Virus record (IMG/VR): IMGVR_UViG_3300031184_000007
Coordinates: 1 to 34,694 of that record
Strand: one strand, 5' to 3'
Source: a virus
Lineage: Duplodnaviria > Caudoviricetes
DNA: 34,694 bases
Shown: piece after piece, positions 1,112-34,230 of the stretch
Layout of the letters: every line of letters begins with the position of its first letter
Numbering within the stretch: the stretch's first letter is position 1
Program-made: the position numbers and the translations under genes
Notes under the pieces: generated by a model
Told to the model about the DNA's origin: nothing
Database searches by the model: none
The model's input: only the letters and a program-made list of their open reading frames with translations

Positions 1112-1318
1112 ATGGTCACAGGGGCAGTTGTTCGGGACTTTGACGATGAAGAGCGGCAAAAAGTGTTGGCGTTGATGAACGATCTTGAAAGAAATCGATA
1201 TTTACAACTTGAAAAGATGATCGAAAACGCCATCGACCGGCTTTATTGGGCACGCAAAGAAGGTCGAAAAATACGCGCACGAGTACGAGCACGTCACAAA
1301 CGGAGGAATAAATCATGA
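1112..1318 (+). CDS. hypothetical protein, basic C-terminus
   Basis: ATG 5 nt after the helicase stop; ATGA overlap with the next gene. Confidence 0.65.
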   Translation: MVTGAVVRDFDDEERQKVLALMNDLERNRYLQLEKMIENAIDRLYWARKEGRKIRARVRARHKRRNKS

Positions 1319-1653
1319 AATCATGGATCTATGTCGCCACCGGCACGATTGCGGTGATCTGTCTCGCGGGCGGTTCAAAGCCAACCGCTGTCACGACCGA
1401 ACAACGCGCTATTCAACGCGCCGAGCAGGTGCAAGCCGCCGGACTTGCGTCGCTCAAACGTTCGTTGAGGGATGCGGAAAGCGCACGGTTCGACGGCGTG
1501 CGCTATGTTAGCACGCCGGCCGGTGAAGCCGTGTGCGGCGTGGTCAACGCTCGCAACGGCTTCGGTGGCTTCGTTGGCTGGCGGCCGTTCGTCGTCAGCG
1601 GTGAGGGTGTGGCGATCAACTCGGCGCCGGCATTCCGAAAATACTGCCTGTAA
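1315..1653 (+). CDS. exported/membrane-anchored conserved hypothetical protein
   Basis: N-terminal hydrophobic segment; LRDAESARF...VCGVVNARNGFGGFVG resembles a motif common in phage and proteobacterial hypothetical proteins. Confidence 0.8.
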   Translation: MKSWIYVATGTIAVICLAGGSKPTAVTTEQRAIQRAEQVQAAGLASLKRSLRDAESARFDGVRYVSTPAGEAVCGVVNARNGFGGFVGWRPFVVSGEGVAINSAPAFRKYCL

Positions 1654-1660
1654 ACACAAT

Positions 1661-1717
1661 TTGACGCGGTCGCTATGAACCGCTATGAACCATACAACGG
1701 GTGACATGGTGTCACCC
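1661..1717 (+). promoter_or_regulatory. putative promoter/operator: TTGACG, tandem CGCTATGAAC repeats and palindrome GGGTGACA-TGG-TGTCACCC
   Basis: Intergenic; same TATGAACC tandem as the promoters at 5398 and 5647; 8-bp inverted repeat at 1699-1717. Confidence 0.6.
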
Positions 1718-1739
1718 ACTTTCACAGGGGTTCCCCATC

Positions 1740-2955: not shown

Positions 2956-2963
2956 GAATCGTC

Positions 2964-3350: not shown

Positions 3351-3658
3351 TGACGTTCGAAGCATGGCATTGCACGCGCCACGATGGGAAGCTATGCCCG
3401 GCCGAGGGGTGTCCTGCATCCTATGGCTGCGCGATCGACCGGGGATGGTCACAGGGGCAACCCTCGCCGCCTCAGTGCCAAGACATCACGCGACCGTCCG
3501 CCTGGTGGTCGTTCTATCGGATCTTGCCCGGTTTGCTGGTGGAAGCCAGCCGCGCCAGCGCGTTCCGGCGCGGCTGGTCGTTCGCCGATCTCCACCCGGT
3601 TGCCTGGTTCGTGATCGTCACGGTTGTGTCGTTCACCGTCGGCGCGTTGGTGTTCTGA
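3347..3658 (+). CDS. Cys-rich hypothetical protein with C-terminal TM
   Basis: GTGA/TGATG coupling; five Cys in the N-terminal half; hydrophobic C-terminus. Confidence 0.6.
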   Translation: MMTFEAWHCTRHDGKLCPAEGCPASYGCAIDRGWSQGQPSPPQCQDITRPSAWWSFYRILPGLLVEASRASAFRRGWSFADLHPVAWFVIVTVVSFTVGALVF

Positions 3659-3843: not shown

Positions 3844-5401
3844 TGGTTCGCCGCTCGAAATCTTGAACTTTGTCCGCATTGTTCATTGGTCCGGCGATGA
3901 TTTAAAAACATTGGAAGCCTGGACAGGTTACGAATGGAGTCGAAAATCAGTCGGTCCAACATCAGCATGGGCAAACGTTCGCGATCTGATTATTCAGGTT
4001 GACAATATTTCCGCCGCAGCCGGTCAAGAAACCCGTTGGGGTTCGCCGATCATACGCGACAGCAATACCGGCGTTGAGGTGACACCGACGCCTGATCCAA
4101 ACACATCGCACCTTCCGGCCGGCGAGCGCATCGGCCAAGTCGCGATCGAGCGTCATCACGGACCAAAGGCCACCGACCCTGTTTACTTTGACGTCCATCT
4201 TTGGAACGGCTTCGGATGGGTGAATGTCGGACCTGGTCATTTCAGCGATGAGAAGACCGCGACCCTGTTCGCAAACAAACTGACCGGCAAATTCGACGAA
4301 GCATCCGTCGGCGGCCTATGTCACATGGGTCATGACTTCGCTTGCCGCCAGTGTGGTGCCCGCCGACCAGAGGCGCCCGCGCTTGCCGGCGAGGCTCCGG
4401 AGACATGCGCCGAAATCATGGAAGGCGCATTCCGAATCACGGTCGACCCACATCATGCCGACCGGTTTAGCGTTACCCGATGGGACGGTGAAGTATGGTC
4501 ATCAGTGTTGATAGCATGTGAGCCGGAGCTTTGGCCGTGGCGGCAGTTTCCTAGCGAGGCCGAAGCCGAGACCGCTATCCTGCAATATGGTCACAGGGTT
4601 GGTGAGACCGTGACGCTCGTCCGCAATGATGGCGCCGAAATCGTATCGGTCGCGCCGGGCGCCGGATCGTTCCCGCGCGAGCACACCGCCGATGAACTGT
4701 TCAGCCGCGACCAGGTGCGCGACCTGGCGACTGCGATCATGGATTTTCAGCGCCAAGGCGAACGGATCGAGCTGAAGGTTGCTGGTCATACCGGCGACAT
4801 GCCGGCGCCACCCGCACCCGCATCAACCGTGTTTCGCATCCGGCCGGATCTTACCAGCATCACGAAGCAATGGAGGATACAAGGTCGACAAGTCTCCGGC
4901 TGCGAATGGGTCGAGATGTTCGAACCCTGTGCGAGCTATTGGATAGCGTTCAACGTTATCCAAAAAACTGAAAACTTCAATTTGGAAAATCCAAGCATAG
5001 AAGATCTTAACCATTGGGCGCGACAAGGATTTCACATCGATCCCCCTGTACTCATCCCTGCCGTGCCGCCGGTTGCTTTGGGAACACCAACACCCGTCGG
5101 TGAATGCCGGATGATCACAGGGTCAGCGGGTGATTGCTGGAACGTCGAAAGGTGGACGGGTCACGAATGGAAGAACATCGCGCGAGATGTGACTAAACGC
5201 ACGGCCGAAACAATCATCCGCGCTCGCAAAGCAAACCCAGATAAAAACCCAGGCTTTGCGCCATGGAACGTTGAACAACGGATCAAATGTCTGCATTCCA
5301 CGTTCGTTGAACGTAACCAAAGCGAATGTAAACTTGACGCAGAAACGTTCATCTCAAAAATATTTAAAGAAATCGAAGAAATAATAGAAAACAACTATTG
5401 A
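3824..5401 (+). CDS. 525-aa hypothetical protein with repeated VxxWxGxxW modules
   Basis: Long ORF; repeats LEAWTGYEW, VHLWNGFGW, VTRWDGEVW, VERWTGHEW. Confidence 0.8.
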   Translation: MKPTNPDGSPLEILNFVRIVHWSGDDLKTLEAWTGYEWSRKSVGPTSAWANVRDLIIQVDNISAAAGQETRWGSPIIRDSNTGVEVTPTPDPNTSHLPAGERIGQVAIERHHGPKATDPVYFDVHLWNGFGWVNVGPGHFSDEKTATLFANKLTGKFDEASVGGLCHMGHDFACRQCGARRPEAPALAGEAPETCAEIMEGAFRITVDPHHADRFSVTRWDGEVWSSVLIACEPELWPWRQFPSEAEAETAILQYGHRVGETVTLVRNDGAEIVSVAPGAGSFPREHTADELFSRDQVRDLATAIMDFQRQGERIELKVAGHTGDMPAPPAPASTVFRIRPDLTSITKQWRIQGRQVSGCEWVEMFEPCASYWIAFNVIQKTENFNLENPSIEDLNHWARQGFHIDPPVLIPAVPPVALGTPTPVGECRMITGSAGDCWNVERWTGHEWKNIARDVTKRTAETIIRARKANPDKNPGFAPWNVEQRIKCLHSTFVERNQSECKLDAETFISKIFKEIEEIIENNY

Positions 5402-5436: not shown

Positions 5437-5453
5437 AGGAAGCGGAGGACACC

Positions 5454-6194: not shown

Positions 6195-6201
6195 CTATAC
6201 T

Positions 6202-6253: not shown

Positions 6254-7093
6254 ATGAGCAACCTCATCTGGAAAATCCCCGCCGTGATCGGCGGAACCTG
6301 CCTCACCGCAACGGCCGTTTGGTTGAACGCTGAACACGTCGCAACTTCGGAAGGCTGGAATTCACCACTCGTTGCCGCCGGCATCATCGTCACTATCTGC
6401 GCAGCCTCGACGCCGCCACTCGCGGAACGGGCGATGAAATCGGGCCAACCCGCTAAGGCCGTGATGCTCTGGCTGTTCTTCATGCTGGCCGTCGGGTTCA
6501 GCCTGTCAGCATCGATCACACGATCGAGCGGCTATGTCTCCGGTAAGGTGACAACGGCCGAAACGATCAACCGCACCGCCAAGCTTGCCGATGAAGCCTA
6601 CACGGCCGCTAAACGGTCCATGGAGGCCGAATGTGCCAAACGCGGCAATCGTTGCCGTGATATGGAACGCAAGGTTGATGAAGCCCGCAAGACGCTGACA
6701 ACCACAAAGCCAGTGCAAGCCGTCGACGCCGGGTCCGATCGCCTCGCCGCAGTGCTCGGCATTGACGAGACGAAAGTGCAACTTTACGTGCCGCTGCTTC
6801 TGCCGCTTGGCCTTGAGATCGGTGGTTTCATCTTCCTGGCGTTCGGCCTGTCGCCGCGCCGCCGCGAAGCCACTGTGATCATAACAGGCACCGACGAGAA
6901 GCCGTTGCAAACCGTTGCAAAGCCTGCGAAGGGCGGTTCCAAAGATTACTATTTGCAACGTTTGCAACGTGAATATCCAATCTTGGCAGGCAAGGTTGCA
7001 CGCGATGAAATGAGCGTTTACGCCGCAACGGTCGCGGCGGGCATGCGCAAAGCACCACGCAAAAAATCGCATCTGAAAATCGTTGCGAACTAG
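6254..7093 (+). CDS. multi-pass membrane protein with coiled coil and basic, putative DNA-binding C-terminal domain
   Basis: About 4 hydrophobic segments; ECAKRGNRC; C-terminal GSKDYYLQRLQREYP...MSVYAATVAAGMRK. Confidence 0.8.
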   Translation: MSNLIWKIPAVIGGTCLTATAVWLNAEHVATSEGWNSPLVAAGIIVTICAASTPPLAERAMKSGQPAKAVMLWLFFMLAVGFSLSASITRSSGYVSGKVTTAETINRTAKLADEAYTAAKRSMEAECAKRGNRCRDMERKVDEARKTLTTTKPVQAVDAGSDRLAAVLGIDETKVQLYVPLLLPLGLEIGGFIFLAFGLSPRRREATVIITGTDEKPLQTVAKPAKGGSKDYYLQRLQREYPILAGKVARDEMSVYAATVAAGMRKAPRKKSHLKIVAN

Positions 7094-8378: not shown

Positions 8379-9152
8379 ATGAAATATCTACTGATTTTGA
8401 TCGCTGGTGTGATCATGTCATACGTCGCACCAGCAAACGCCACCGATCTCCGCTCGACCAAGGATGCACCGGCGTTCGACACCATGACCAAGGCACCCAT
8501 CGGTTTTGGTGGCGGCTATGTCGGCGGTTCGGTGAACTGGTCGCAAATCGACGTTAGCCAATCCGCGTCAATCAGCATCGGCGACGAGTCCGCATCGTTT
8601 GGCCTTCCCGGCATGTCCGGCGATGAGTTCAGCGGCGGCGTACAGATCGGCTACAACTTTGAAGCCGGCCGACTCTATGGCGGCCCGGTCGTGAAGTTCG
8701 ATCTCGGCGGCCCGACCGCGTCGCTGCATCACACGTTCGCCACCGACGAAGACGGCGAAGCGCTGGCCACCGGCGATCTCAAAATGACGGTGAACTGGAC
8801 GGCGACCCTCGCCGGCAAAGGTGGCATCCGCGTAACCGACTGGCTCGGCGTCTATGGCCTGCTCGGCATTGGCTTCGTCGATGTCGACGTCGACGGCCGC
8901 GCCCATGTCGGTCGTCCTGGTCAGGGCATTGGCTTGCACGAGAACGCAACCGACACCGTGACCGCGTTCACCTATGGCGCCGGTGTGGATCTCAAGCTTT
9001 CGGACAACTGGCGTGCGTTCGCCGAGTGGCAACGGTTCGACCTCGACACCTTCAATGCACAAGGCTCGATCCTGTTCGACCAAATCCGCTACGGCTACAA
9101 AGCTGATAGTGATCTCGACGTCATCCGCGTTGGCGTAAACTACGCCTGGTAA
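8379..9152 (+). CDS. outer-membrane beta-barrel protein, Omp25/Omp31/RopB-like
   Basis: Signal peptide (ANA-T); FGGGYVGG, GGVQIGYNF, GAGVDLKLSDNWRAFAEW; C-terminal VIRVGVNYAW BAM-type signal. Confidence 0.9.
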   Translation: MKYLLILIAGVIMSYVAPANATDLRSTKDAPAFDTMTKAPIGFGGGYVGGSVNWSQIDVSQSASISIGDESASFGLPGMSGDEFSGGVQIGYNFEAGRLYGGPVVKFDLGGPTASLHHTFATDEDGEALATGDLKMTVNWTATLAGKGGIRVTDWLGVYGLLGIGFVDVDVDGRAHVGRPGQGIGLHENATDTVTAFTYGAGVDLKLSDNWRAFAEWQRFDLDTFNAQGSILFDQIRYGYKADSDLDVIRVGVNYAW

Positions 9153-9172
9153 GATAATCACAGGGGCGAGTC

Positions 9173-10770: not shown

Positions 10771-11077
10771 GATGTACCGCCTCGAAGACGTCATCGAAAA
10801 CGCCTGGCGGATGCCTCAGCTAGCGACATGGAACCCGAACACGCATCCGACTTGCACTGTGACCATCCAGCCGAAACCCAGGCCGTCGGGATTGATCTTA
10901 CCGCCCGGTATGGTGCCACCGGCACCGCGTCCGGAGAACGTGCCGCGATATTTCGTGACGTTCGAATGTGAACAAGGAATGATCAACGGCGCGCCGGCAT
11001 ATCAGGTCAAAGGAACCTGCAACGGCAAGACGATCATCGTTCATCAGGGGTTTTTAGACAAGCGGCCGGTGAACTGA
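10763..11077 (+). CDS. hypothetical protein
   Basis: Last gene of the + arm; overlaps the previous stop. Confidence 0.7.
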   Translation: MDEMYRLEDVIENAWRMPQLATWNPNTHPTCTVTIQPKPRPSGLILPPGMVPPAPRPENVPRYFVTFECEQGMINGAPAYQVKGTCNGKTIIVHQGFLDKRPVN

Positions 11078-12881: not shown

Positions 12882-12894
12882 GATCACAGGGTCC

Positions 12895-13299: not shown

Positions 13300-13333
13300 A
13301 ATTTTAACATTCTCAAGGCGTTGCGTCACTAGG

Positions 13334-14076: not shown

Positions 14077-14077
14077 T

Positions 14078-19143: not shown

Positions 19144-19154
19144 TGTGCCCTCGC

Positions 19155-21455: not shown

Positions 21456-21457
21456 GA

Positions 21458-23288: not shown

Positions 23289-23303
23289 GTGACCATCCTT
23301 ATG

Positions 23304-23909
23304 TCACGGTGCATATTCGAGCGCGAATCTACCACACTTTTCCGACGGGTCAGGTATCCGACAAACGACCTCGAAACCAAGCGCGGCAAGCTGTGTCAAT
23401 CCCGACGTGCCGGTACGAATGTCGAGCACGACCAGGCCACCGGGATTGAGCGACCGAACCACCGATTCGGCATATACGCTAACCGGATAATGATGGCCCC
23501 ACGACCGCGAAGAAATGATCAGATCAACCGCCAGGTGAAACGGACGCGGCGCGTGGATGGTCACAGGGGGACAGGCCGGCACGTTCGCGCGCATCATCGC
23601 CGCGCCGGCCGCCACGTCACCCCACGCGGTCATCGTTTGCTTGAAGCCCCTATCCTGCGCGCCGGTGCCGTCGCCATCGAGCAGATGGACACGCACGCCC
23701 GGCCAAGCGCGCGCGAGATGCACATCGATCAGCGCCAGGCCGCAGCCGATATCGAGCAGCGACTCCGGCGGCCGCCGGCCGGCGAGCACTGGCCAGAGCG
23801 CGGCGAACTTTTGCACGGCCGCCAGTTCGATCAGCGGGCAACTGTAATCGAGATCCCGCCCGGTCCGGATCAGATAGTCGCGGACCTGGTCGGGCCAAAC
23901 TATCGACAT
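23304..23909 (-). CDS. class I SAM methyltransferase (paralog group A)
   Basis: LLDIGCG, HLLDGDG, SWGHHYP, LNPGG. Confidence 0.88.
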   Translation of the reverse strand: MSIVWPDQVRDYLIRTGRDLDYSCPLIELAAVQKFAALWPVLAGRRPPESLLDIGCGLALIDVHLARAWPGVRVHLLDGDGTGAQDRGFKQTMTAWGDVAAGAAMMRANVPACPPVTIHAPRPFHLAVDLIISSRSWGHHYPVSVYAESVVRSLNPGGLVVLDIRTGTSGLTQLAALGFEVVCRIPDPSEKCGRFALEYAP

Positions 23910-24484
23910 TGAAAAACGTGTCGGCGGCCGTACTGTTCGACCAGGTCGAAGCCGGCGGCTTGGATCTCGCTCGCCTGCTCGCCATGCAGCCGGTCCGACG
24001 GATGCAGGTCAACCGCGATCAGGCCGCCCGGTTTGAGCGAGCGCGCGGCGAGCGGCAGATATGTCGAGATCGGATAATGCGTTCCCCACGATTTGAACGA
24101 CACGATGACGTCGACCGGTATCGTCAAATCAGGGTCCGACGGGTGCTCGATCACCGCACATGCGGGTGGTAGGTTGGCGCGCGCGAGCGCGCCCGCAAGG
24201 CGAACATCATTCCACGGAGCCGCACCCGCGCGATAGTCATGGAAGATATCGCCGGATCCGTCACCGTCGAGTAGGTGGATTGCGTCGAGGTTGAACCGAA
24301 CCGCAAGCACGATCGCCGCCATACCCAGGCCGCACCCGATATCGAGCAGAGTACGCGGCCGATATTCGGTGAACAGCTCGGCGAGCGTTCCGGCTTGCTT
24401 GTGTGCGCGGGCAATCTGACGTGCAAAGACGTCATTGGTTTTGTTTTTCAGAAGGAATGCCGCGACCTCATCAGGAAATATCAT
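23900..24484 (-). CDS. class I SAM methyltransferase (paralog group A)
   Basis: ATGA coupling to the head closure gene; LLDIGCG, HLLDGDG, SWGTHYP, LKPGG. Confidence 0.88.
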   Translation of the reverse strand: MIFPDEVAAFLLKNKTNDVFARQIARAHKQAGTLAELFTEYRPRTLLDIGCGLGMAAIVLAVRFNLDAIHLLDGDGSGDIFHDYRAGAAPWNDVRLAGALARANLPPACAVIEHPSDPDLTIPVDVIVSFKSWGTHYPISTYLPLAARSLKPGGLIAVDLHPSDRLHGEQASEIQAAGFDLVEQYGRRHVFQCR

Positions 24485-24831
24485 TTGTCCGCACTCGCTA
24501 CGGCGTCGATCTCGATCCATTGCCGCGTTGTGCCGACCCGCTCGCGCGTAGCGGTGATATTGTACAACTTGCCTTCGAAGCTGATACGGTCTTTCGGCGT
24601 CAAGCCCCGCGTGAGGCTCCAATAGCGGACCGTGAACCGGGTCGAAATCTGTGCACCCACCTCAGCCGCTCGATAGCCTTCCGCCGCGCTCGCGTCAGCC
24701 CGCTGCGCCGATATTGTGCCGATGTCGCCCCACACCTCCACCGGTTCGTTATACGGCGTGCTCGTGGTCACTGTGGCGCGCTGGAGGGTAATCCGCCGGT
24801 CGAGGTCGCCGGCTTGCAACTGTGCTGGCAT
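24481..24831 (-). CDS. head closure / head-tail adaptor (SPP1 gp16-like)
   Basis: AGDLDRRITLQR...TRFTVRY...KDRI...YNI. Confidence 0.9.
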   Translation of the reverse strand: MPAQLQAGDLDRRITLQRATVTTSTPYNEPVEVWGDIGTISAQRADASAAEGYRAAEVGAQISTRFTVRYWSLTRGLTPKDRISFEGKLYNITATRERVGTTRQWIEIDAVASADK

Positions 24832-24840
24832 GATATCCCC

Positions 24841-25539
24841 CTAGCAGCCGGAGCCACAGCCCCAACCGGCGTTGCTGTCTATGTTCACTTGCCCGCTTCC
24901 GTAGCCGCCGCCGGTATCGTCCAGCGCGATGTAAGCGCCCGCCACGCGGAACGGGGCGATGATCATCTCGGCGCCGTGCGGTGTCGGCGCGGCGTTGGCA
25001 CCGATCACGCTCGACGGGCGGAACTCATACCAATCCGCGACGATCAGCTTGACGCACGCCTTGACGATCTCCGGCACGCGGTCGTTCTCCGGCGAGGCCG
25101 CCGAATAATAGCCGGCTGTGAAGGTGACGCGCACGAGATCCGCATCAGAGGTAGCGAGCAATGACGGCCATGCGACACCGTAAAGCGGAACGATCTCGCC
25201 GCCACGTTCGGTCCCGGCGCCGATCACCCGCCAGTTGCCCGCCTCGGCGAATGTCTGCTCGGCGCCGTTGGTGTCCAAATAGGCAATGCTATCCACGCTG
25301 ATCAGCGGCGGAAACGGCAAACAGATCTTGGCGCCGAAACTACCGAACGACGCACGCAGCCGTTGCGGCCGGAACGCACGGCCGGTGATACCGAACGGAC
25401 CATCGACCCGCTGTTCGGCCGCGATCGTATAAACCTCGATCAAGGAATCATCGTCGGTGTGATCAACCCGCAAGTGCGCCTTCATCTCGGCGAGGCTGAC
25501 CATACGATCACCAGGCTGCTCAAGAACTTCGACAAACAT
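24841..25539 (-). CDS. head-tail connector (gp6/gp15-like)
   Basis: VSLAEMKAHLRVDHTDDDSLI, VRVTFTAGY, VADWYEFR; TGATG coupling. Confidence 0.92.
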   Translation of the reverse strand: MFVEVLEQPGDRMVSLAEMKAHLRVDHTDDDSLIEVYTIAAEQRVDGPFGITGRAFRPQRLRASFGSFGAKICLPFPPLISVDSIAYLDTNGAEQTFAEAGNWRVIGAGTERGGEIVPLYGVAWPSLLATSDADLVRVTFTAGYYSAASPENDRVPEIVKACVKLIVADWYEFRPSSVIGANAAPTPHGAEMIIAPFRVAGAYIALDDTGGGYGSGQVNIDSNAGWGCGSGC

Positions 25540-26264
25540 CACTTGGCCCATGAGGTCAATTCGGCAAAGAATTCCCCCGCATATTCCGCTGTTTCGTATC
25601 CTTTTAACAGCGGATATCCGTCGGTCCAATGCACCAGCGCCGGACTGTCTCCGTTATGTTCCTGATAGAGCTTCGTGTGTCCCACCAAATAATTCCAACG
25701 CGGATGAAGCTCGCCGATTTCCTCATCCTTAAGCCAGCAAAAAGCGTGTAGATCTCGACCGGGTACACTGTTGATTAGTTGGACGGTCAACGCCGCATTG
25801 GCAGGATGATCACAGTTGAAGACCATGACGCTAGACCAATTTTTGCGCGAATATACGGTCTGTATTTGACCGTCCATCTTCACCGCCTCAACTGGCGCGT
25901 GTTGATGCTTGACACATGTCACTGCGTAACGCGGGTCGATCTCGTTGAACAGTTTGCCGAGATTGACCCGCGCCAGGATATCGCAATCCATGAACGCGGC
26001 CATGCCGATGCCGGCGAGATGCGGCGTCAGGAATCGGCTGATGGCAAACTCTGTCGACATCGGCGCTTCGCTGATCACGTCCCATAGCTGGTCGTGCTCG
26101 TGCATCTCCGTTGGCCGCGTATAGAGCCCCATCGCGCGCAGATCGGCCAGCACCACGCCGCGCACCGATGTCGGTCGAGTCAAACGCCGCTCGATACTAT
26201 GCCGGCAAACGGCGTGCGCGGCCGCGTGGCGATGGTCGAAACCGATAAAAATCGACTGTCTCAT
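25539..26264 (-). CDS. GT-A glycosyltransferase (GT8-like)
   Basis: IFIGFD, STEFAISRF, FMDCD (DxD), RKNWSSVMVFN, WNYLVG, HWTDG. Confidence 0.88.
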   Translation of the reverse strand: MRQSIFIGFDHRHAAAHAVCRHSIERRLTRPTSVRGVVLADLRAMGLYTRPTEMHEHDQLWDVISEAPMSTEFAISRFLTPHLAGIGMAAFMDCDILARVNLGKLFNEIDPRYAVTCVKHQHAPVEAVKMDGQIQTVYSRKNWSSVMVFNCDHPANAALTVQLINSVPGRDLHAFCWLKDEEIGELHPRWNYLVGHTKLYQEHNGDSPALVHWTDGYPLLKGYETAEYAGEFFAELTSWAK

Positions 26265-26437
26265 TTATGGACTTCCCCCGGCTTTGCGCCACATTTCGGA
26301 CAGCTCCCGGTTGGATCTGGTTCAGTCCAGCCCATACCGGCGAGCGCCGAACCCTCGCCGGTATTGATTAAGGCATCCCAAAGCCACACCCCTATGCTCC
26401 GGCGCGGCACTCGCTCGCCTTTAACGCACTCGCTCAT
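26261..26437 (-). CDS. 58-aa hypothetical protein with CPKC
   Basis: ATGA coupling at both ends. Not in the ORF track. Confidence 0.55.
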   Translation of the reverse strand: MSECVKGERVPRRSIGVWLWDALINTGEGSALAGMGWTEPDPTGSCPKCGAKPGEVHK

Positions 26438-26631
26438 TTGACCGCTTCCGGCGTGCCGGACTTGAACACGATAAATTCCACCGTGGCCGTAGTCACTTCT
26501 CGCATGCGCTGATTCACGGAAACCGCACGCACACCGCGAACCCTACGCCCGTCTTGATCACGGACGACAAACCGTTCGCCCTCTTTTTCGACGTTCAATT
26601 CGCAGAACGTCTCATCGGCCGGCGCCATCAT
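26434..26631 (-). CDS. hypothetical protein
   Basis: ATGA coupling at both ends. Confidence 0.65.
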   Translation of the reverse strand: MMAPADETFCELNVEKEGERFVVRDQDGRRVRGVRAVSVNQRMREVTTATVEFIVFKSGTPEAVK

Positions 26632-27428
26632 GCCGCCCACGTCAGACAGAAATCGCCCGCCTTTTCCCAGGCGACCACATATCCCCATGCCTTGAGCAGG
26701 TCGACCGCCGCGAACTGGCCGCGCCCGTAGCGCTCCGCATTGTTGGGTTTCTGCTCGACCACCATGACCGGCCGATCACGTTGAATCGTGCGCGCGCCGC
26801 CCTGGACAACAGGAAGCTCGAACCCCTCGACGTCGATCTTGATGAAGTCAACGCCGTGCAAATTCAGGCTGTCGATCGTCACCGCCTCGACATGCGCGAT
26901 GCACGCGCCGGAGACACCCACCGGTGCGACGTGACCATTGCCGGAATTATCGGCCACCGTGACGATGTCCAGCTCGCCGCACTCGGCGCCGACCGCGCAT
27001 TCGATCAGCTTGACGTTGGGGCAATCTTCCGTGTTGATCCGAAAATGCGGATGCAACGCGGGCAATGGCTCAAAGGCGATCACCCGCGCGAACGAATGCG
27101 CGAGCACGCGCGACCAAAGCCCGATATGCGCACCCACGTCGAGTGCAAGCCCGCGCCTGGTCGCCACTTCTAACGCGCGCTCGATCTTGCTGAACTGATA
27201 GGTTCCCTTGCCTTCGAATGCCGGACCCTTTGCAAGATGCTCGGCGAAATGGGTATCCCCCAAAGGTAAGGAAATTCCTTCGACTATGCGCATTTCATAA
27301 AGCTCCGTATCATCGTTTGGGCACAACTTAATTTCCGGTCCGCGCGACTCACCGATCGCGCCGTCACGCGCACGCAAGGTCAGGTAGCCTTGCACGAACC
27401 CACATTTCGGACACATCCAAGTGCTCAT
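26628..27428 (-). CDS. FkbM-family methyltransferase with N-terminal CPKC...CP segment
   Basis: ALDVGAHIG, AFEP, DFIKIDVEGFE; ATGA coupling. Confidence 0.92.
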   Translation of the reverse strand: MSTWMCPKCGFVQGYLTLRARDGAIGESRGPEIKLCPNDDTELYEMRIVEGISLPLGDTHFAEHLAKGPAFEGKGTYQFSKIERALEVATRRGLALDVGAHIGLWSRVLAHSFARVIAFEPLPALHPHFRINTEDCPNVKLIECAVGAECGELDIVTVADNSGNGHVAPVGVSGACIAHVEAVTIDSLNLHGVDFIKIDVEGFELPVVQGGARTIQRDRPVMVVEQKPNNAERYGRGQFAAVDLLKAWGYVVAWEKAGDFCLTWAA

Positions 27429-27661
27429 GCCGGCATGTCCGGAACCTTGTGAATCGGCCAAGCGTCCATAAGCTCGGCTTGCCGGCGAGCAGCCTCGACG
27501 ATGTTCGGCGCCGCGCCCTTGGCTTCCGCCTCGTTCGCCCAAAAACGAACTGTCCGCGCGGCGACCGCATCGGAACCACGGACCAGGAAAACGGGTTCAT
27601 CGTCCGGTATGAGCCCGGCCGGATCTTGAATGCGGTCATAGTCTGGGCGCGCGTGTTTCAT
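27425..27661 (-). CDS. conserved phage hypothetical protein (DEPVFLVR motif)
   Basis: TGATG/ATGA coupling; DEPVFLVRGSD..A..TVRFWA. Confidence 0.75.
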   Translation of the reverse strand: MKHARPDYDRIQDPAGLIPDDEPVFLVRGSDAVAARTVRFWANEAEAKGAAPNIVEAARRQAELMDAWPIHKVPDMPA

Positions 27662-28209
27662 CAGTTCCTCACTAACCAAAAAGTCAAAGACTTCGAACCC
27701 TCAATCATGTCCCGGATCTGCCAATGATCCGAAATTGTCGCGAGCTTATCGCGCCACCATTCCAGACCTTGAACAATCAGATGCGCGTTTCGCCCATCGG
27801 GAAGCTGTTGCTTCGCCGGCTTCGTCGCGATGTGCAAATAAATTCCCATCTGTGCAAGCTCGGCTATATGCCGGAGAACATTATATAAAAGCTCCGGTTC
27901 GATATGCTCTAGAACATCCGTGCAAATCACAAGGTCCGCAGGCTCCGGCATATCTGAAAATTCAATAACACCAGGATCATAACACCGAATATTCAAATCC
28001 GGATAATGTTCAATTAAAGTCGCTTGTCCGCAACCATAATCAATTATCGACATTTGTCCGCCTTCATCACCAAGCGAACTCATAAATTCAATAATGTCAT
28101 TACCGTACTTATAACCTTTGTTTCCCCATGGCATCGACTGATGCATTTCATGTAGTAGTTCGCAATAACCAGGGGAAACCAGGTCGTCATAACGAAACGG
28201 TTTAGGCAT
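27661..28209 (-). CDS. class I SAM methyltransferase (paralog group B)
   Basis: IIDYGCG, YDPGV, CTDVLEHI, NAHL. Confidence 0.9.
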   Translation of the reverse strand: MPKPFRYDDLVSPGYCELLHEMHQSMPWGNKGYKYGNDIIEFMSSLGDEGGQMSIIDYGCGQATLIEHYPDLNIRCYDPGVIEFSDMPEPADLVICTDVLEHIEPELLYNVLRHIAELAQMGIYLHIATKPAKQQLPDGRNAHLIVQGLEWWRDKLATISDHWQIRDMIEGSKSLTFWLVRN

Positions 28210-28802
28210 TATCTCATATCCTTAAGCAGCCAACGGGTACACTTAGAAGATTTGTCAGGTATTTGTTCGACGATCTCCAGACCCATTTTCTTAAGTTGTT
28301 CTAATCCGTCGGTATTTGTCCGTATATCCGTAATTACAAAACCACCCGGCTTAACACAACGCATCACGGTTTCGGAATAAATGGAAATCGGGTAATGATG
28401 ACCCCAAGAACGACAGGAAATAATCAAATCAACTTGAGTATTAATCTTCTCAGGTTCTGAGAAATGTTCGAACACTTCCACCGAATGACCAAGGTTCTCC
28501 CTCACGATCGCCGCGCCGAACCGAACATCATTCCAAGCCTTGGTATCATCCTTGAAACCGGACCGCTTTTCCACAGTACCGTCGCCTGTACCATCAACCA
28601 GATGGATTTCAGTAACCGGCGCATGTTGAGCAATGAAAATATCGATGATTGCCCAACCGCAACCCAAATCTAAAAGCGAATGTGGTGCAAGTTTTTCAAT
28701 AACAGGCTTCATACATTCAAACTGAATGGTCGCTTGGTCTACCCGCGTGTTACCAATTACTTTACCAATACGTTCGACGACAACACGCGGATAAACTATC
28801 AT
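28209..28802 (-). CDS. class I SAM methyltransferase (paralog group A)
   Basis: LLDLGCG, HLVDG, AWNDV, SWGHHYP, KPGG. Confidence 0.88.
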   Translation of the reverse strand: MIVYPRVVVERIGKVIGNTRVDQATIQFECMKPVIEKLAPHSLLDLGCGWAIIDIFIAQHAPVTEIHLVDGTGDGTVEKRSGFKDDTKAWNDVRFGAAIVRENLGHSVEVFEHFSEPEKINTQVDLIISCRSWGHHYPISIYSETVMRCVKPGGFVITDIRTNTDGLEQLKKMGLEIVEQIPDKSSKCTRWLLKDMR

Positions 28803-28805
28803 GTT

Positions 28806-29141
28806 TTAGATTTCCTTGAACAACAGAGCAACAGCCAAAGTCGCTTCCGCTTCTTCGAGAGTTGGGCTGTAGAAACGAACGGAAGGAAACGGAGGTTCGA
28901 TAATTATATTGTTGTCAGGGTTTCCAATATTTATCGAAACACTCGCGGAATTTTTATTACTGAAATTGAACTTACTCAACGCACCAACACCTAAAGTTGT
29001 CGCATGAATTGAAAGCAATTCACAATCGACAGCTTCGAAAACATCTCCAGAAACAGAACCCATGGCGTCAGTCAATTCAAGATCCCATTCGATCGTAAAC
29101 AACTTGTTACCAACGTTAGTTTTTGTATATGGAACAGTCAT
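28806..29141 (-). CDS. hypothetical beta-rich protein
   Basis: ATGA coupling with the FkbM stop; low GC. Confidence 0.7.
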   Translation of the reverse strand: MTVPYTKTNVGNKLFTIEWDLELTDAMGSVSGDVFEAVDCELLSIHATTLGVGALSKFNFSNKNSASVSINIGNPDNNIIIEPPFPSVRFYSPTLEEAEATLAVALLFKEI

Positions 29142-29749
29142 TTCCACCTCATACAGAAATCGTGTTTAATCTTCCATTCGACCGTTGCGCCCCACTTCTC
29201 TAGCATGGTCACAGTGGCGCGTTGTTCCAAACCATACCGACTTTCATGTTTCTGCTCGACCACTATCACCGGCCGGTCGCGGCGAATTGTTTCTTCGCCT
29301 CCCTCGACGACGAATGTTTCGAACCCCTCGACATCAATTTTGATGAAGTCGACCTGCGTCAACTTAAAATCATCAAGAGTCCGCATGTCGATTTCAACTT
29401 CACCACGCACATCAGCCGGTGAAATATGCGAACCAAACGGGTGTTTTAAGTTATCCAAATATGCAATCCCGTTTAGATTGCCGATCGCAACTGACGAAAC
29501 CTTCACCGACGGTCGATTGATGACATTTTCGCGTAGCGCGATAACACTATCCGGATGCGGTTCGAAAGCTGTTATCCACTCAAAGACGGCGACAAGTTGA
29601 ATCGTCCAAAGTCCAATGTTTGCACCCACGTCGAGCGCATGGCGACGCTGACGACAGAACGGCAATGCCCGCGCCAACCGATCGCCCTGGTAAGGTTCGG
29701 GTGCCGCAAGGATTTTCTGCATCTTCCGATCGTAATCCACAAACTTCAT
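29138..29749 (-). CDS. FkbM-family methyltransferase
   Basis: ALDVGANIG, AFEP, DFIKIDVEGFE; ATGA coupling. Confidence 0.92.
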   Translation of the reverse strand: MKFVDYDRKMQKILAAPEPYQGDRLARALPFCRQRRHALDVGANIGLWTIQLVAVFEWITAFEPHPDSVIALRENVINRPSVKVSSVAIGNLNGIAYLDNLKHPFGSHISPADVRGEVEIDMRTLDDFKLTQVDFIKIDVEGFETFVVEGGEETIRRDRPVIVVEQKHESRYGLEQRATVTMLEKWGATVEWKIKHDFCMRWK

Positions 29750-30552
29750 TGCCAATGCGCCTCACCGCGCTTCACGTATCCGCGCGGCGTGCGACCGCCG
29801 GCTTTGAATTTCCCTTTGGCGTGGTCGAGACGTTCGGCCAGCCGAGAATAAACGAACGGATGTGACGACCGCCGCGCCATATCGTTGCCGGATAGGCTGA
29901 CAGGTTTAGGAAAGTCCCCCCGCGCGACCGCACGCGCAACAAGCTGTTGCAACACAAAGCTGTCGTGGGTTTCCTGGAACTTGAAAACGTAATCGGTCGC
30001 ATAGACGTCGCGAAACCAGGTCATGAACGGCACATGCGCCGGGTGCGTCTCGTTGAACACCACGAACCCGCATTCTGGATACCAGGCCGCACGATCGAGC
30101 CAGGCCATGTAAAACGCCGGGTCCTTCACCAGGGATTGCAGCCAATCGAGCGTCACGGTTGCGTGTGTCACCACGTCCGCATCGCACATGATCAACCACC
30201 CCGGCGCGGCCGGCGGCCGCGCGGCCGCGTCAGTCAGCGCCGCGACCTTGTGCGCGAACCGAACGCAATCGCGGCGATAGCTATACGGCTTGCCCTTACG
30301 CAGGTCGATCTTGCCGAACCGCGCTTTGTTCCGCCCGTGCGCGTCCGGGTTGTCGGCGTGCCGGACCTTCCAAGCTTCAAACCATTCCGGCAACTGGCGT
30401 TGGACGACGCCGGCAACGTCGACCGTGAACCCTTCGGCGTAAACCTCAAGCGTCGCCTGCTTCGGCCAGTGCTCGACGAAGGTTTCCGCCATACGCCGGC
30501 CGGTCTGTTTCCAGCCTTCCGCGTTGCATGTGCTGACGATTCTAATCTGCAT
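29746..30552 (-). CDS. GT-A fold nucleotide-sugar transferase
   Basis: RFAHKV, WLIMCDADV (DxD), ECGFVVFN, HDSFV, DHAKG. Confidence 0.8.
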   Translation of the reverse strand: MQIRIVSTCNAEGWKQTGRRMAETFVEHWPKQATLEVYAEGFTVDVAGVVQRQLPEWFEAWKVRHADNPDAHGRNKARFGKIDLRKGKPYSYRRDCVRFAHKVAALTDAAARPPAAPGWLIMCDADVVTHATVTLDWLQSLVKDPAFYMAWLDRAAWYPECGFVVFNETHPAHVPFMTWFRDVYATDYVFKFQETHDSFVLQQLVARAVARGDFPKPVSLSGNDMARRSSHPFVYSRLAERLDHAKGKFKAGGRTPRGYVKRGEAHWQ

Positions 30553-31069
30553 AGGTCGCCCGTATGATGAGATCCGGCCGCGTCTCGAAACGATTCAATT
30601 TGGCATCCCACCAACTCGACGGTTGCACGGTGAGGTGAACGTTTTCGCCGTTGTCGAACACCTTTCCGGCAAGCCTGGTGCTGATGTGAAAATAAGCGAA
30701 CACCGGTCCGGTCTGATGCAAAGACCCGAAAATGTCGGCAAGGATCATGTCGACATCGTCCGGGTCAATGTGTTCCATGACGTCGGTACAGATGACACCG
30801 CCGAATGTACCGTCTGGTTTATTGCCGATCTGTAGAACACCCGGATCATAGCAATAAGGAAGGAGGCCGCCCCATTGATCATGAATCCGTTTTTCTAAGT
30901 ATTGGTAGCCTTTACCAGATCCATAATCTAGCAATCGATCAGGTTTCGACCACTCGACTAATTTTCTTATTTCTCTGATTTGTGCCTGACTTACTTTACC
31001 AGAGAAATGTTTTTCATATGTCGCGTGATGTTCCCGGTACAACTTCGCGTAATTGCGTTTTAATTTCAT
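30542..31069 (-). CDS. class I SAM methyltransferase (paralog group B)
   Basis: LLDYGSGKG, YDPGV, CTDVMEHI, NVHL. Confidence 0.9.
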   Translation of the reverse strand: MKLKRNYAKLYREHHATYEKHFSGKVSQAQIREIRKLVEWSKPDRLLDYGSGKGYQYLEKRIHDQWGGLLPYCYDPGVLQIGNKPDGTFGGVICTDVMEHIDPDDVDMILADIFGSLHQTGPVFAYFHISTRLAGKVFDNGENVHLTVQPSSWWDAKLNRFETRPDLIIRATYAD

Positions 31070-31874
31070 TGACGCCCCATCCGCTCGCGATCTCACTTGC
31101 GCGAAATTGACAGTAAGCTAGACTGGCAAGCAGCGATAGACGCCCCCCGTCTGGTGCAAGTAGCGGGTCCTCTATGTCGTCGATCTGGCGCGACGATATG
31201 GGACCCGCGATCGCGTCGCCGAGCACGATCGACGGCACGCCGGCAAGCATCGCCTCAAAGCAAGCATTCGAGCCGTAAGTGATCAGCGCATGTGCATCGT
31301 CCAAGATCTCGTAAATTGATTTATGCCGAGACAAGGTCGTTCCCGCAACTGGTACCACGTCGGACATCGAAGGCTTGGGACGATACCAAATCTTGCGCGT
31401 GCATCCTGCCGCACGAATATCACGCACAATCTCGGCGACATATTCGGCCGGCTCCGGAAGATCATGCGTGATGTAATATTTACGGCCACCGCCCGCGATG
31501 ATCACAGGGGAAGCGGGGTGCGGTTGACGCCATGGTTTTGGGTTCCATCCTTGCGCGGCCGCACGCGCGTAGTCGCGCGGGATTTTGCCGAGATAGTCAG
31601 TCGGCTGGTGCGCGTCGATCGCCATGCGCCACCAATCATCCCGGCGATCATATCCTTTGTCGAAGATCAGGACCCGTTGACCGGCCGCGACGCAGGCTTC
31701 ACGCAGCACGATCGACTTGAGCCCGACCATAATCGCGACATCAGCCGGGATAGGGTTCCCCCTGTTCGGCGCGACCGTGACATGATCGCCAGTTATGCGG
31801 CACCCTTTCACCCAAGCTTCGCAAAGGGGTGCTTCGCGCGACTTGCCTTCCGCGATGTAGAAAACGAACTTCAT
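31014..31874 (-). CDS. GT-B glycosyltransferase, KpsS/Capsule_synth-like (paralog 3)
   Basis: DKGY, YRPKP, ALITYGSNACFEAMLAGVP, LAYCQF..SEIASG; TGATG coupling. Confidence 0.75.
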   Translation of the reverse strand: MKFVFYIAEGKSREAPLCEAWVKGCRITGDHVTVAPNRGNPIPADVAIMVGLKSIVLREACVAAGQRVLIFDKGYDRRDDWWRMAIDAHQPTDYLGKIPRDYARAAAQGWNPKPWRQPHPASPVIIAGGGRKYYITHDLPEPAEYVAEIVRDIRAAGCTRKIWYRPKPSMSDVVPVAGTTLSRHKSIYEILDDAHALITYGSNACFEAMLAGVPSIVLGDAIAGPISSRQIDDIEDPLLAPDGGRLSLLASLAYCQFRASEIASGWGVNEIKTQLREVVPGTSRDI

Positions 31875-31996
31875 CAGTGACACCCTCGTTTAAAACACGG
31901 AACCGGAAGATTCTGCTTGTCGAGGGTGAACCCCTCACCGCCGCATCCACGATCACCGCGAAACCACATCCATAGCCGACCAAGCCACCACCTCAC
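31874..31996 (-). CDS. 40-aa Trp/Arg-rich peptide
   Basis: GTGA overlap upstream, TGATG downstream; fills the gap exactly. Confidence 0.5.
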   Translation of the reverse strand: MRWWLGRLWMWFRGDRGCGGEGFTLDKQNLPVPCFKRGCH

Positions 31997-32820
31997 TCGA
32001 TGATCCTCCGGATATGTTCCCAGGCCGCGCCGGAGCGCATCTCCGACGGCGCCCATTGCGCATAAGCGACATCGGCGAGCAGGGCCCGGCGTTCGTCGAG
32101 CGACAGTACCGGCGCGCGCTGCGCGACCGCGTCGAGCATCGACGGCACCGACACCATTTTGCCGACACCCTTCGCCGCCCATGACGGTACCGCCGCAACC
32201 AAGCCATCGACCGCGACGTTTGAATGATGGGTGACGATCATGCCAACGCGCTTAAGAACATCGGCAATCGGCTCGATCGCGTCCAAGCTCGCCGGCTTGG
32301 GTCGATAGATCACCTCGACCGTGGGAAATTCTTTCTTGATCTGGGCAACCGTGCGAAGTTCCCACTCTAGCGGCTTGAACCCATGGGTTCCGGCCGCCTT
32401 GCCAGACATGCCGGCGACCAGCACCGCGCCCGGCTGCTCGCCGGTGCGGTTCGGCGCGACCTCGATTCCCAGATCATCCCACCGATCGGCCGGCATGCCG
32501 CGCGCCATGGTGTCGGCGGTGTCCCAACCATCCACCGAAAGCCGGTGATGTCCCTCCCGCGCGCCGCCCTTGTCGCCGACCGGCTTGCGGTTGAAATAAC
32601 CCATGTCGAAATAAGCGAAATGGCCGCCCGCTCGCCGATATGCGGTAAAAACCGCTTCGTGGTTCCAGCCGTATGCGATGACAACATCGGCGACCACGTC
32701 ACCGGTCCACCGCCTTAAGATTGGCGCGCGGATGCCATGCACGGTCAACCCTATCTGCATGGCATCCGCGATATGGTTGGCACGGCCGTTTTGCGGGAAG
32801 GCGTAAAGAGCGACTTTCAT
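31993..32820 (-). CDS. GT-B glycosyltransferase, KpsS/Capsule_synth-like (paralog 2)
   Basis: DMGYF, YRPKP, IVTHHSNVAVDGLVAAVP, AYAQW..SEMRSG. Confidence 0.75.
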   Translation of the reverse strand: MKVALYAFPQNGRANHIADAMQIGLTVHGIRAPILRRWTGDVVADVVIAYGWNHEAVFTAYRRAGGHFAYFDMGYFNRKPVGDKGGAREGHHRLSVDGWDTADTMARGMPADRWDDLGIEVAPNRTGEQPGAVLVAGMSGKAAGTHGFKPLEWELRTVAQIKKEFPTVEVIYRPKPASLDAIEPIADVLKRVGMIVTHHSNVAVDGLVAAVPSWAAKGVGKMVSVPSMLDAVAQRAPVLSLDERRALLADVAYAQWAPSEMRSGAAWEHIRRIIE

Positions 32821-33605
32821 TTCTTGGGCACCTTCATAAGCATCCGGAAAGGTTCACCGCTGGAGATCTCGGCGACCGTCCATTGTGACCATGCCATACG
32901 CTCAAACATCGGCACGCGATCGCCGAGGAACGGGTTCTCGATCGTGTCGAACCCGAACCGCGCAGCCGGCGCACCTATCCAGCCGGGAAGCTCATAAAAC
33001 GCCGGCACGCCGAGCATGATGGATTTTAGCGCCGCGCCCGAACCCCAAGTCACCACGGCGTGACATCCCGCGAGCGCGGGCGCCAGCGGCTTGGCGAGCG
33101 ACTTCAATCCAGGGTGAGGCCGAACCCGGATCTCGCGCCGCGTCACCTTCTTCAAACGCTCGACGATCAGGCGCGGCCAGCTCGCCGGCATGGCCACGCC
33201 AGGCGCACCGATGCCACGTTGCGGCAACACCAGGATGAAACCGCCTTCCTCCCGCCACGGCCTCAGATTTTGGCCCATGAGCGGAAAACGCGCGGTTTCC
33301 CCCTGATACCAGCGACCGCACCCGTTGTGATGGTCGATCGCCAGGCTGAACCATTGATGGCCGTCCTGGTCGACCGCGTCCGTATAGCCGTTCTCGGCGA
33401 CGATGATCCGAGAATGTGCATGGTCATGCCGCCGCGCTTCATACTGAAATTGACTGCCGCGATTCCAGATAACAAGAATGTCGTCGCGGTCGATCTTCCT
33501 AAGCGGTTTGGTAGTTACGATGTAACCGGCGGCCGCGAGCCCTTTTATAAAAGCTTCGTGCCTATAATGCACACTCGTTCTTATTAAACAAACCGCAGTC
33601 GGCAT
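32817..33605 (-). CDS. GT-B glycosyltransferase, KpsS/Capsule_synth-like (paralog 1)
   Basis: ENGY, LVLPQ, VRPHP, VVTWGSGAALKSIMLGVP, AWSQW..AEISSG. Confidence 0.78.
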   Translation of the reverse strand: MPTAVCLIRTSVHYRHEAFIKGLAAAGYIVTTKPLRKIDRDDILVIWNRGSQFQYEARRHDHAHSRIIVAENGYTDAVDQDGHQWFSLAIDHHNGCGRWYQGETARFPLMGQNLRPWREEGGFILVLPQRGIGAPGVAMPASWPRLIVERLKKVTRREIRVRPHPGLKSLAKPLAPALAGCHAVVTWGSGAALKSIMLGVPAFYELPGWIGAPAARFGFDTIENPFLGDRVPMFERMAWSQWTVAEISSGEPFRMLMKVPKK

Positions 33606-34230
33606 AAGGGTAAGCTCTCAAAATACTATTTCGTGCGACGTTTAAGACTTCAATGCCCCAAGATCTTAGAATTCCAGCTTGCCGGTCGAGGTCGTTCGCC
33701 CATTTCTTAAATTCAAAAGCACTTGGATTGCGAAGTCCCGGCCCATGGTCCGGATGCCAGTGCGCCCCGCAATAATCCAGACATAGCAATATCTTAGACG
33801 CCCCAAACTGCGCCGCAAGATTAACCGCCTGAAATCCTGAATTGCCACCATAACCGACGGTGCCGACCGGCTGCCTGATCATTTCTGTTAGCCTAAGTTT
33901 TGTCGGACCCTTCGCAATGGTCACAGGGTAGACGCCTGAGTCCAAATAACGAATGTGATCATCGGCGCAGAACCGCCAACCATCGAACTTGCGTGCGCGC
34001 GGGTACGCGCGCCAGAAACCTGAATCGGCCGCGTAAAGGACTTCGGCCGATGGCATCAATTCGAATGACCGGTTTATCGCGATCACCCGCACCGCTCCCG
34101 GCCGGAGCGTATCGGCCACCGTCTTCGCCGACATACCAGCGCCGAGAACCAAGACGGTTTCCCCACGCCAGTCCGGGAACGTGTCTCGCTCGCCGGCTGG
34201 CGTGCGTGCGGACGCGCTTATGCGTTTCCC
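33562..34230 (-). CDS. Maf/DUF115 (GT29/GT42-like fold) transferase domain, probably reached by -1 frameshift
   Basis: FPDWRGETVLVLGAGMS, IAIN, YAAD, GGNSGFQAVNLAAQFGASKILL.LD. The conserved-looking N-terminus lies upstream of the first start codon (TTG 34152). Confidence 0.7.
   Translation of the reverse strand, partial: GKRISASARTPAGERDTFPDWRGETVLVLGAGMSAKTVADTLRPGAVRVIAINRSFELMPSAEVLYAADSGFWRAYPRARKFDGWRFCADDHIRYLDSGVYPVTIAKGPTKLRLTEMIRQPVGTVGYGGNSGFQAVNLAAQFGASKILLCLDYCGAHWHPDHGPGLRNPSAFEFKKWANDLDRQAGILRSWGIEVLNVARNSILRAYPYADCGLFNKNECAL

Follow-up and report, generated by a model that had tools for sequence, protein, structure and literature searches.

A one-stranded 12-base word in a siphovirus genome has a core that accompanies a phage replication module and may mark primase start sites

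We analysed a stretch of 34,694 nucleotides from an uncultured tailed soil phage (Duplodnaviria; Caudoviricetes; IMG/VR record IMGVR_UViG_3300031184_000007, positions 1 to 34,694), hereafter called the window, which runs from a helicase gene to a siphovirus late arm (Table 1). Dispersed over both arms is a 12-base word that reads CCC-T-GTGA-YCAT on the minus strand. Counting on both strands revealed ten exact copies on the plus strand and none on the minus strand, at precisely the positions given in a preliminary description made from the sequence alone; a shortened form, TCACAGGG, occurred 13 times on the plus strand and 0 times on the minus strand. The copies are read as MVTG, WSQG, YGHR or MITG in plus-strand genes and as PVI or PVT in five minus-strand genes, which bears out the earlier remark that several plus frames and unrelated minus genes are used, and their orientation is independent of the direction of transcription. 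The copy at 12880 lay outside the gene calls used for the frame analysis. No hairpin was found around the sites (mean energy -8.6 versus -11.0 for random stretches), no Rfam match emerged, and full sites did not coincide with promoter-like or terminator-like hits over positions 1-13000.

Table 1. Positions of the word, its partial and core-only forms, and gene features in the window.
Feature	Position	Strand	Remark
Full 12-mer (CCCTGTGACCAT on the minus strand)	1112..1123	+	Opens with likely start codon, MVTG
Full 12-mer	3445..3456	+	Same letters at homologous G001 place
Full 12-mer	4587..4598	+	Same letters at homologous G001 place
Full 12-mer	5111..5122	+	
Full 12-mer	12141..12152	+	Within minus-strand gene (PVI)
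Full 12-mer	12880..12891	+	Endolysin start; R is the alternative base in the near-identical strain G010
Full 12-mer	18117..18128	+	Tail gene; identical in G010, L040, L041, G001 (68-100% DNA identity)
Full 12-mer	23557..23568	+	Within methyltransferase gene
Full 12-mer	31498..31509	+	Homologous G001 place has core only, without GGG
Full 12-mer	33917..33928	+	Absent at homologous G001 place
Partial site, TCACAGGG only	1718..1729	+	
Partial site, ATAATCACAGGG	9154..9165	+	
Partial site, TCACAGGG only	18749..18760	+	Not retained in three more distant relatives
9-base core without GGG	21953..21961	+	
9-base core without GGG	25806..25814	+	
9-base core without GGG	29205..29213	+	
9-base core without GGG	899..907	-	
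9-base core without GGG	6874..6882	-	
9-base core without GGG	8408..8416	-	
9-base core without GGG	10858..10866	-	
9-base core without GGG	12508..12516	-	
9-base core without GGG	23288..23296	-	
9-base core without GGG	32884..32892	-	Kept in G001
9-base core without GGG	33954..33962	-	
UvrD-like helicase, truncated by contig start	3..1106	+	Past this gene G001 has its replication module, which the window does not reach
Siphovirus late arm: endolysin, tail, head-tail connectors, glycosyl-/methyltransferase block	12162..34152	-	

None of 100 dinucleotide shuffles contained an exact copy of the 12-mer, and codon-preserving shuffles yielded a mean of 0.17 copies and a maximum of 2 (300 shuffles) versus ten observed. 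The enrichment thus survives the codon-preserving null that the preliminary description had named as a check, and the word is under selection at the DNA level, as had been proposed there. In a 74.5-kb relative, G001, the 12-mer occurred 12 versus 0 times on the two strands, in the same orientation as in the window and with several copies at homologous positions, so that full sites are strictly one-stranded in both genomes (22 of 22). No close cultured relative of the window phage was found by DNA or by tail protein. The restriction to the plus strand had also been claimed for near copies, to which it does not extend: allowing one mismatch, 14 sites were found on the plus strand and 4 on the minus strand, and the near copy ATGGTCACAGTG (29205), listed as a plus-strand site, has two further copies on the minus strand at 896-907 and 10855-10866.

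The word has two tiers. Both strands are enriched for its 9-base core, ATGRTCACA, and polarity is limited to the form that carries GGG. Core sites without GGG numbered 3 on the plus and 8 on the minus strand of the window (codon-preserving null: 0.78 and 0.29), and 9 and 11 on the two strands of G001 (null: 1.08 and 0.57). In the substitution profile, single changes inside T-GTG were not enriched while some flank changes were; GTG is invariant and followed by A or G, and GTGG variants are enriched in the cultured Sinorhizobium phage HMSP1-Susan and in G104. On the 5' side, GTGAYCAT is directly preceded by a pyrimidine at 22 of 23 sites in the window, 40 of 40 in G001, 15 of 16 in HMSP1-Susan, 25 of 25 in G094 and 16 of 17 in G104, compared with only 7 of 20 GTGRYCAT sites in the Pseudomonas phage tf. 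No longer consensus emerged, the K that follows GGG in the window not being kept in G001.

Across phages, enrichment of the core (Y-GTG-R-YCAT) is found mostly with a single lineage of a phage replication module, and the core recurs in phages, including HMSP1-Susan, that share only replication genes with G001. When viral contigs were scanned by one 14-mer, 2 of 114 unrelated loci had the replication module, and both were among the 3 loci with at least 3 cores (Fisher p 0.0005). In new records, TGTGRYCAT was found 62 times in 204 kb inside the clade versus 48 times in 595 kb outside it (p 0.0016). Enrichment persisted against codon-preserving shuffles in HMSP1-Susan, G094, G095, G104, G141-G144 and G146. 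Three members of the clade (OLIVR4, G111 and G145) lack clear enrichment, and two genomes outside it are enriched, G148 (22 versus a null of 5.0) and, weakly, G127 (8 versus 2.4). The core shows no strand bias in G094 (17/16), G144 (14/10) and G148 (12/12), and a reversed one in G142 (6/10). As a target of DNA methylation the word was rejected: the methyltransferases of the window match FkbM and small-molecule families and are not common to the other core-enriched phages. A literature search, mostly of open-access papers, returned nothing relevant on such a motif.

This distribution bears on two readings raised in the preliminary description. That the word paces packaging or ejection, read by a terminase or an internal protein, would agree with the word pointing the same way relative to the terminase and tail genes of G001, L033, L035, L040 and L041, and with strict polarity only in this lineage, which has an HK97-like terminase. 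However, ten other core-enriched phages have replication genes in common with G001 and no terminase, portal or HNH gene (E<1e-4; several of them are fragments), which for the core speaks against a packaging link; the core is also enriched in HMSP1-Susan, a circularly permuted phage (PMC5940943) that has no packaging gene in common with G001. Conversely, G003-G006 share tail or terminase genes and yet lack the motif. We consider this reading highly unlikely. Recognition by a host protein (FtsK/KOPS-like, AddAB/Chi-like or a regulator) appears very improbable as well. HMSP1-Susan infects Sinorhizobium and an outer-membrane protein of the window has weak alphaproteobacterial hits, so the hosts may be related; against a host-wide word, none of 81 alphaproteobacterial genomes, a sample that may miss the real host or a narrow host clade, held more than 4 copies, one genome had 30 cores in 6.3 Mb, and Agrobacterium phage OLIVR4 and Rhizobium phage P106B are without the motif.

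The module of G001 includes a primase that matches structures of the NrS-1 primase (E 3e-17) and also the NrS-1 HBD family, retains the residues aligned to NrS-1 D78, D80, H115, E139 and Y261, and gave an AlphaFold model with a mean pLDDT of 81.7. G001 has an intact AEP primase with a helix-bundle domain; for the window phage we infer an NrS-1-type primase-polymerase encoded outside the contig from synteny with G001 and from contigs of a related strain in run X2, which contains 0.08 of the words. The phage of the window itself is present in run X1, which gave helicase pieces and almost no cover of the G001 primase at 80% likeness. Each of the five gene blocks of the window and G001 has more G than C at four-fold sites of the CCCTGTGAYCAT strand, and the site-bearing strand is G-rich in every block, as expected of a lagging template. 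This single-sign skew fits strong sites on the lagging or displaced template in the window and G001; the fit is weak in G104 and G143 and lacking in G142. Together with the tracking of replication genes by the core, the skew favours the earlier suggestion of a polar, primase-like site read relative to replication.

On balance, we find it somewhat probable that the 12-mer is a selected priming site of the predicted NrS-1-type enzyme. When the minus strand is single-stranded, recognition of GTGA and its 3' flank would fall to the helix-bundle domain, and the primer would start opposite T, reading A-G-G-G. Phage replication would be unidirectional (single fork or rolling circle), so that the lagging-strand template, or the displaced strand, would retain the full, strongest sites at intervals of 3.6-6.6 kb, and re-priming would be left to the weaker core-only sites of either strand. 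NrS-1 is reported to prime best at GTGA and GTGG, with the first base copied lying just 5' of GTG (PMC8718748), and the pRN1 primase is reported to require GTG, the studied template beginning C-T-G-T-G (PMC2034472, PMC13469122). Against priming, most primase homologs are without the motif, the module genes co-segregate, and the sites of characterised homologs span 3-4 (or 8) bases versus 9-12 here. We rejected a GTG rule common to every NrS-1-like primase, as no GTG word was enriched over 34 pooled groups of homologs; motif discovery de novo on the short primase loci of 27 groups gave no common word, and G002 has 65 copies of CCTGTGG, yet a primase-helicase of a different type.

Trees of the polymerase, SSB, exonuclease, helicase, VRR-NUC and primase genes recovered about the same clade, and the primase therefore cannot be singled out as the gene linked to the motif. 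Another protein of the module (SF2 helicase, exonuclease, VRR-NUC nuclease, SSB or the C-terminal DNA-binding part of the primase) might accordingly recognise the word, which would then serve for loading, for restart or in the manner of Chi, all module genes falling in the motif-enriched clade and polarity following the skew. We judge this quite unlikely: the repeat that follows the primase gene in G001, probably an origin repeat, has another sequence, TCAGGACG, in five copies, and the strict pyrimidine-GTG anatomy fits a primase. The protein families concerned are not known to read sites of 9-12 bases.

The preliminary description, supported in part, had considered neither the both-strand core nor a site-specific nickase that would leave one-strand breaks in virion DNA, as in the Pseudomonas phages tf and Rembedalsseter or in T5; LUZ24 and phiKMV also belong to the phages with such localized single-strand interruptions. 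We regard a nickase target as unlikely, if less so than the other alternatives. One-strand placement across both arms in two genomes, a density like that of the 14 nicks of tf, the CTGTGAC that CCCTGTGAC has in common with TACT/GTGAC (PMC3517423) and the HNH gene at the end of G001 would all fit. In tf, however, all 17 exact or single-change sites lie on one strand, CACTGTGAC is not nicked (PMC3517423), the first G of GTG varies within its family (WACTRTGAC), a DnaB-like primase/helicase is encoded and the skew follows the genes; here core enrichment affects both strands, altered forms at that G show none, and the core tracks replication genes rather than terminase or HNH. If nicking were nonetheless true, programmed nicks would extend to a new siphovirus group.

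Priming could itself produce breaks. If primers kept an unligatable 5' triphosphate, site-specific nicks would be left in virion DNA, the ATGRTCACAGGG strand carrying leftover primer junctions; phage nick motifs would then become linked to priming. We also entertain, as possible if rather doubtful, that within the clade the loose GTG rule followed by archaeo-eukaryotic primases has become a genome-wide code of 9-12 bases, with weak sites on both strands and, in the window lineage, a strong polar tier fixing the start of every lagging-strand fragment. Were the priming reading true, the in-vivo specificity of the primase and the direction of phage replication would be readable from genome sequence, and one-strand phage motifs otherwise classed as nick sites would gain a second explanation. 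HMSP1-Susan on the harmless host Sinorhizobium meliloti is a cultured phage that makes the idea testable. A primase site of 9-12 bases would be far more specific than those described for this enzyme family, and a possible tool for site-directed priming.

Among known systems, KOPS and Chi are polar chromosome motifs with a polarity tied to replication direction, and the stoperators of mycobacteriophage L5 are dispersed asymmetric words of 12-13 bases. The present motif differs from the former in following a phage gene module and in not being enriched in the bacterial genomes sampled (0-4 copies); it resembles the latter in dispersed asymmetry, except that, as recognised at the outset, its orientation does not flip with transcription. 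The interruptions of tf, Rembedalsseter and LUZ24-like phages (TACT/RTGMC, WACTRTGAC; PMC3517423, PMC11780129) likewise form a one-strand motif across convergent arms, inside genes and regardless of their direction, at about 10-14 per genome and with CTGTGAC. They belong to an unrelated family with another primase type, have a variable first G and no both-strand core, and, in tf, keep near matches on the same strand, whereas 4 of 18 are on the minus strand here; nicks are shown there and hypothetical here. The archaeal plasmid enzyme pRN1 ORF904 shares the C-T-G-T-G arrangement and a primer of A then G, but follows a three-base rule, with no genome-wide selected motif described in the accessible parts of its reports (PMC2034472, PMC13469122). 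NrS-1 has only a clustered repeat after the primase gene in its own genome, with no dispersed polar word of 9-12 bases. Its known sites (GTGA, GTGG, TTTGGTTA) are short and come from in-vitro work; the likeness lies in a homologous enzyme in G001, a GTG(A/G) core and a predicted start 5' of GTG (PMC8718748).

The 12-mer ATGRTCACAGGG was counted on both strands of the window, a 34.7-kb siphovirus fragment with two arms: a UvrD-like helicase and numerous small genes occupy the + arm, and endolysin, tail, connector and glycosyl/methyltransferase genes the - arm. Ten exact copies were found on the + strand, all at the positions given in the preliminary description, and none on the - strand; this excess persisted against a codon-preserving shuffle (300 runs; mean 0.17, maximum 2). 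Among larger relatives G001 (74,557 bases) is the nearest, with a tail protein of 73% identity; there too the 12-mer was polar, its 12 exact copies lying on a single strand and oriented to the tail genes as in the window. Four shorter relatives (L033, L035, L040, L041) added six full sites, each oriented likewise. Five of the exact window sites aligned together with their flanks to G001; three of these were identical (DNA 68-81% identical), one kept the core only and one was lost; at the 12880 site, the R base is switched in a near-identical strain. Judged from sequence, the 12-mer is under selection as DNA, and its sites are gained and lost over time.

Without GGG, the 9-base core occurred in 3 and 8 copies on the two strands of the window and in 9 and 11 copies on those of G001 (null means 0.3-1.1). 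Because the core is enriched on both strands (12 vs 19 core-only sites in window and G001, p 0.28) but the GGG-extended form is one-stranded (22/22, binomial p 5e-7), the sites fall into two tiers: the core, present on either strand, and the extended form, which is strictly polar. The polarity first proposed for the repeat thus holds for the extended form and fails for the core, which had escaped that reading. In the opposite-strand reading, CCC-T-GTGA-YCAT, sites altered at one base of T-GTG were not enriched, and some altered within CCC and the 3' flank were. In core-enriched phages, unlike in the Pseudomonas phage tf, the base immediately 5' of the core is nearly always a pyrimidine and would template a starting purine.

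At four-fold sites, G exceeded C on the CCCTGTGAYCAT strand in all five gene blocks of the window (+0.10, +0.16) and G001 (+0.02, +0.12, +0.13). G-over-C skew marks the strand that stays single-stranded longer, which in one-directional replication is the lagging or displaced template; the CCCTGTGAYCAT strand is a putative template of this kind. The same strand was preferred in phage records G143 (9/1) and G104 (21/9) and by the longest form in Sinorhizobium phage HMSP1-Susan (Susan; 5/1), and was not preferred in G094, G144, G148 or G142. In tf (W10), whose nick motif is one-stranded, four-fold skew tracks gene direction (-0.22, +0.26).

The main rival explanation holds that the 12-mer marks virion nick sites, as described for tf, one strand of which carries 14 nicks at TACT/RTGMC (PMC3517423), and for Rembedalsseter, with 13 at WACTRTGAC (PMC11780129); it matches their sites in polarity, density and CTGTGAC. 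However, exact and single-change tf sites lie on one strand (17/17), whereas the core of the window and G001 lies on both; moreover, the tf family varies the first G of GTG, and tf carries a DnaB-like primase/helicase. We regard nick sites as the less likely reading. A motif read by a host protein is unlikely: a host-wide, Chi- or KOPS-like distribution was not borne out, with at most four copies per genome in 81 genomes of an alphaproteobacterial sample that may not include the host clade. This conclusion does not depend on the one unpublished genome in the sample, G045.

Coordinates of repeats and other features in the window, G001 and phage NrS-1
Feature	Sequence	Position (strand)	Remarks
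12-mer ATGRTCACAGGG, exact	window	1112, 3445, 4587, 5111, 12141, 12880, 18117, 23557, 31498, 33917 (+)	
Methyltransferase/glycosyltransferase block	window	23304-24484, 25539-34152 (-)	~15 genes, FkbM-type and other small methyltransferases, putative glycosyltransferases; among head-tail genes; shared with G001; probably adds a methylated glycan to the virion
Outer-membrane beta-barrel, Lom-like	window	8376-9152 (+)	phage-encoded; 22 homologs, 37-74% identity, several on long contigs
Repeat CTATGAACC	window	1673-1691, 5402-5420, 5651	doubled at two places; likely operator
Sigma-70-like promoters	window	5398, 5647	two, strong; overlapped by CTATGAACC
GGGGAACCCCTTGAGAG	G001 (L021)	44840-58770	~13 copies; GC-rich hairpin directly upstream of early genes
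GGGGAACCCCTTGAGAG, partial	window	1733 (-)	one copy
Gene-free stretch after primase	G001 (L022)	73640-73990	five TCAGGACG and TGGATAGA run; likely origin
AGTGTAAC cluster	NrS-1 (W11)	17068-17370	about a dozen repeats directly after primase gene; likely origin
TTTGGTTA	NrS-1	17205 (-)	single genomic copy, within AGTGTAAC cluster

G001 carries HK97-like terminase and portal genes and an HNH gene at the genome end; its replication module comprises polymerase, SSB, exonuclease, helicase, endonuclease and primase. The window ends short of this module, which its phage probably possesses, to judge from synteny with G001 and contigs from two read runs. Run X2 (close strain) gave contigs on the G001 primase at depth 72-162; run X1 (window's phage) gave helicase pieces at depth 20-23, with the G001 primase almost without cover at 80% likeness. 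Contig sizes of 61,144 and 73,511 bases recur in the homolog lists of both the outer-membrane protein and the primase, a weak hint in the same direction.

When words were counted de novo in 11 named phages, TGTGACCAT ranked among the top 9-mers of Susan. Susan and G001 both carry the replication module and have one weak tail-completion match between them, but no terminase, portal or HNH gene in common. One 14-mer, scanned against viral contigs, picked out 118 loci from 47 of 64 collection parts, of which 80 had full flanks; with four from G001 and G010 (the strain near-identical to the window) excluded, the module was present at only 2 of 114, and these were two of the three loci with at least three cores (Fisher p 0.0005). 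G001, Susan, G094, G095 and G104 fell within one primase clade (support 0.98), as did Agrobacterium phage OLIVR4, G097, G098 and G111, in which the motif was not clearly enriched. Outside the clade, no sequence among 30 (22 being loci of 12-22 kb) reached p<1e-4 for core words. A second scan gave 30 new primase groups, 6 within the clade and 24 outside. Whole records of all 6 and of 14 outside groups held 62 TGTGRYCAT in 204,400 bases versus 48 in 594,572 (p 0.0016), a comparison not fully blind, as locus-level counts were known beforehand and G148, alone supplying 22 of the 48, was included for its high count.

Each phage was compared with 40 codon-preserving shuffles based on automatic gene calls, and core enrichment was upheld in Susan (19 vs mean 2.5), G094 (24 vs 3.9), G144 (23 vs 3.2), G142 (15 vs 1.9) and G143 (10 vs 1.4). 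The shuffles also upheld it in G095, G104, G141 and G146, marginally in G097, and outside the clade in G148 and weakly in G127, and revealed none in OLIVR4, G147, KpV52, MSW-3, tf or G006. Ten enriched or borderline phages, several of them fragments, have replication genes in common with G001 and no packaging genes. Phages with related primases had other dispersed top-ranked words: TGTGGGC in RcSpartan (W08; 19/7), CCCGTGG in Sasha (W06; 18/12) and CCTGGAC in Rhizobium phage P106B (W01; 19/19) and G097 (19/15).

The 12-mer is a real feature, and on balance we lean slightly towards primase recognition sites of a new form as its likeliest explanation. The G001 primase matches NrS-1 primase structures (E 3e-17) and the NrS-1 HBD family, and retains the residues aligned to NrS-1 D78, D80, H115, E139 and Y261. 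Several points count against primase recognition. Trees built gene by gene across the module recover roughly one clade, so biochemistry, not phylogeny, pointed to the primase. Pooled over 34 primase groups, GTG was not enriched. In G002 (L023-L025), which has a different primase-helicase, CCTGTGG occurs 65 times in 45.5 kb, counting both strands, where 11 would be expected. In the literature searched, we found no paper describing this motif, or primase sites selected across whole genomes of phages of this kind, and the full text of the HMSP1-Susan announcement does not mention the motif. In the NrS-1 report, Y261 is required for priming, GTGA and GTGG are the most efficient sites, and primer synthesis begins at the base immediately 5' of the motif (PMC8718748). 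GTG is likewise required by the pRN1 primase, which starts on the 5' side of this triplet (PMC2034472), the template studied being numbered C1 T2 G3 T4 G5 (PMC13469122). It counts against primase recognition that these characterised homologs read fewer bases than the word of 9-12 bases described here.
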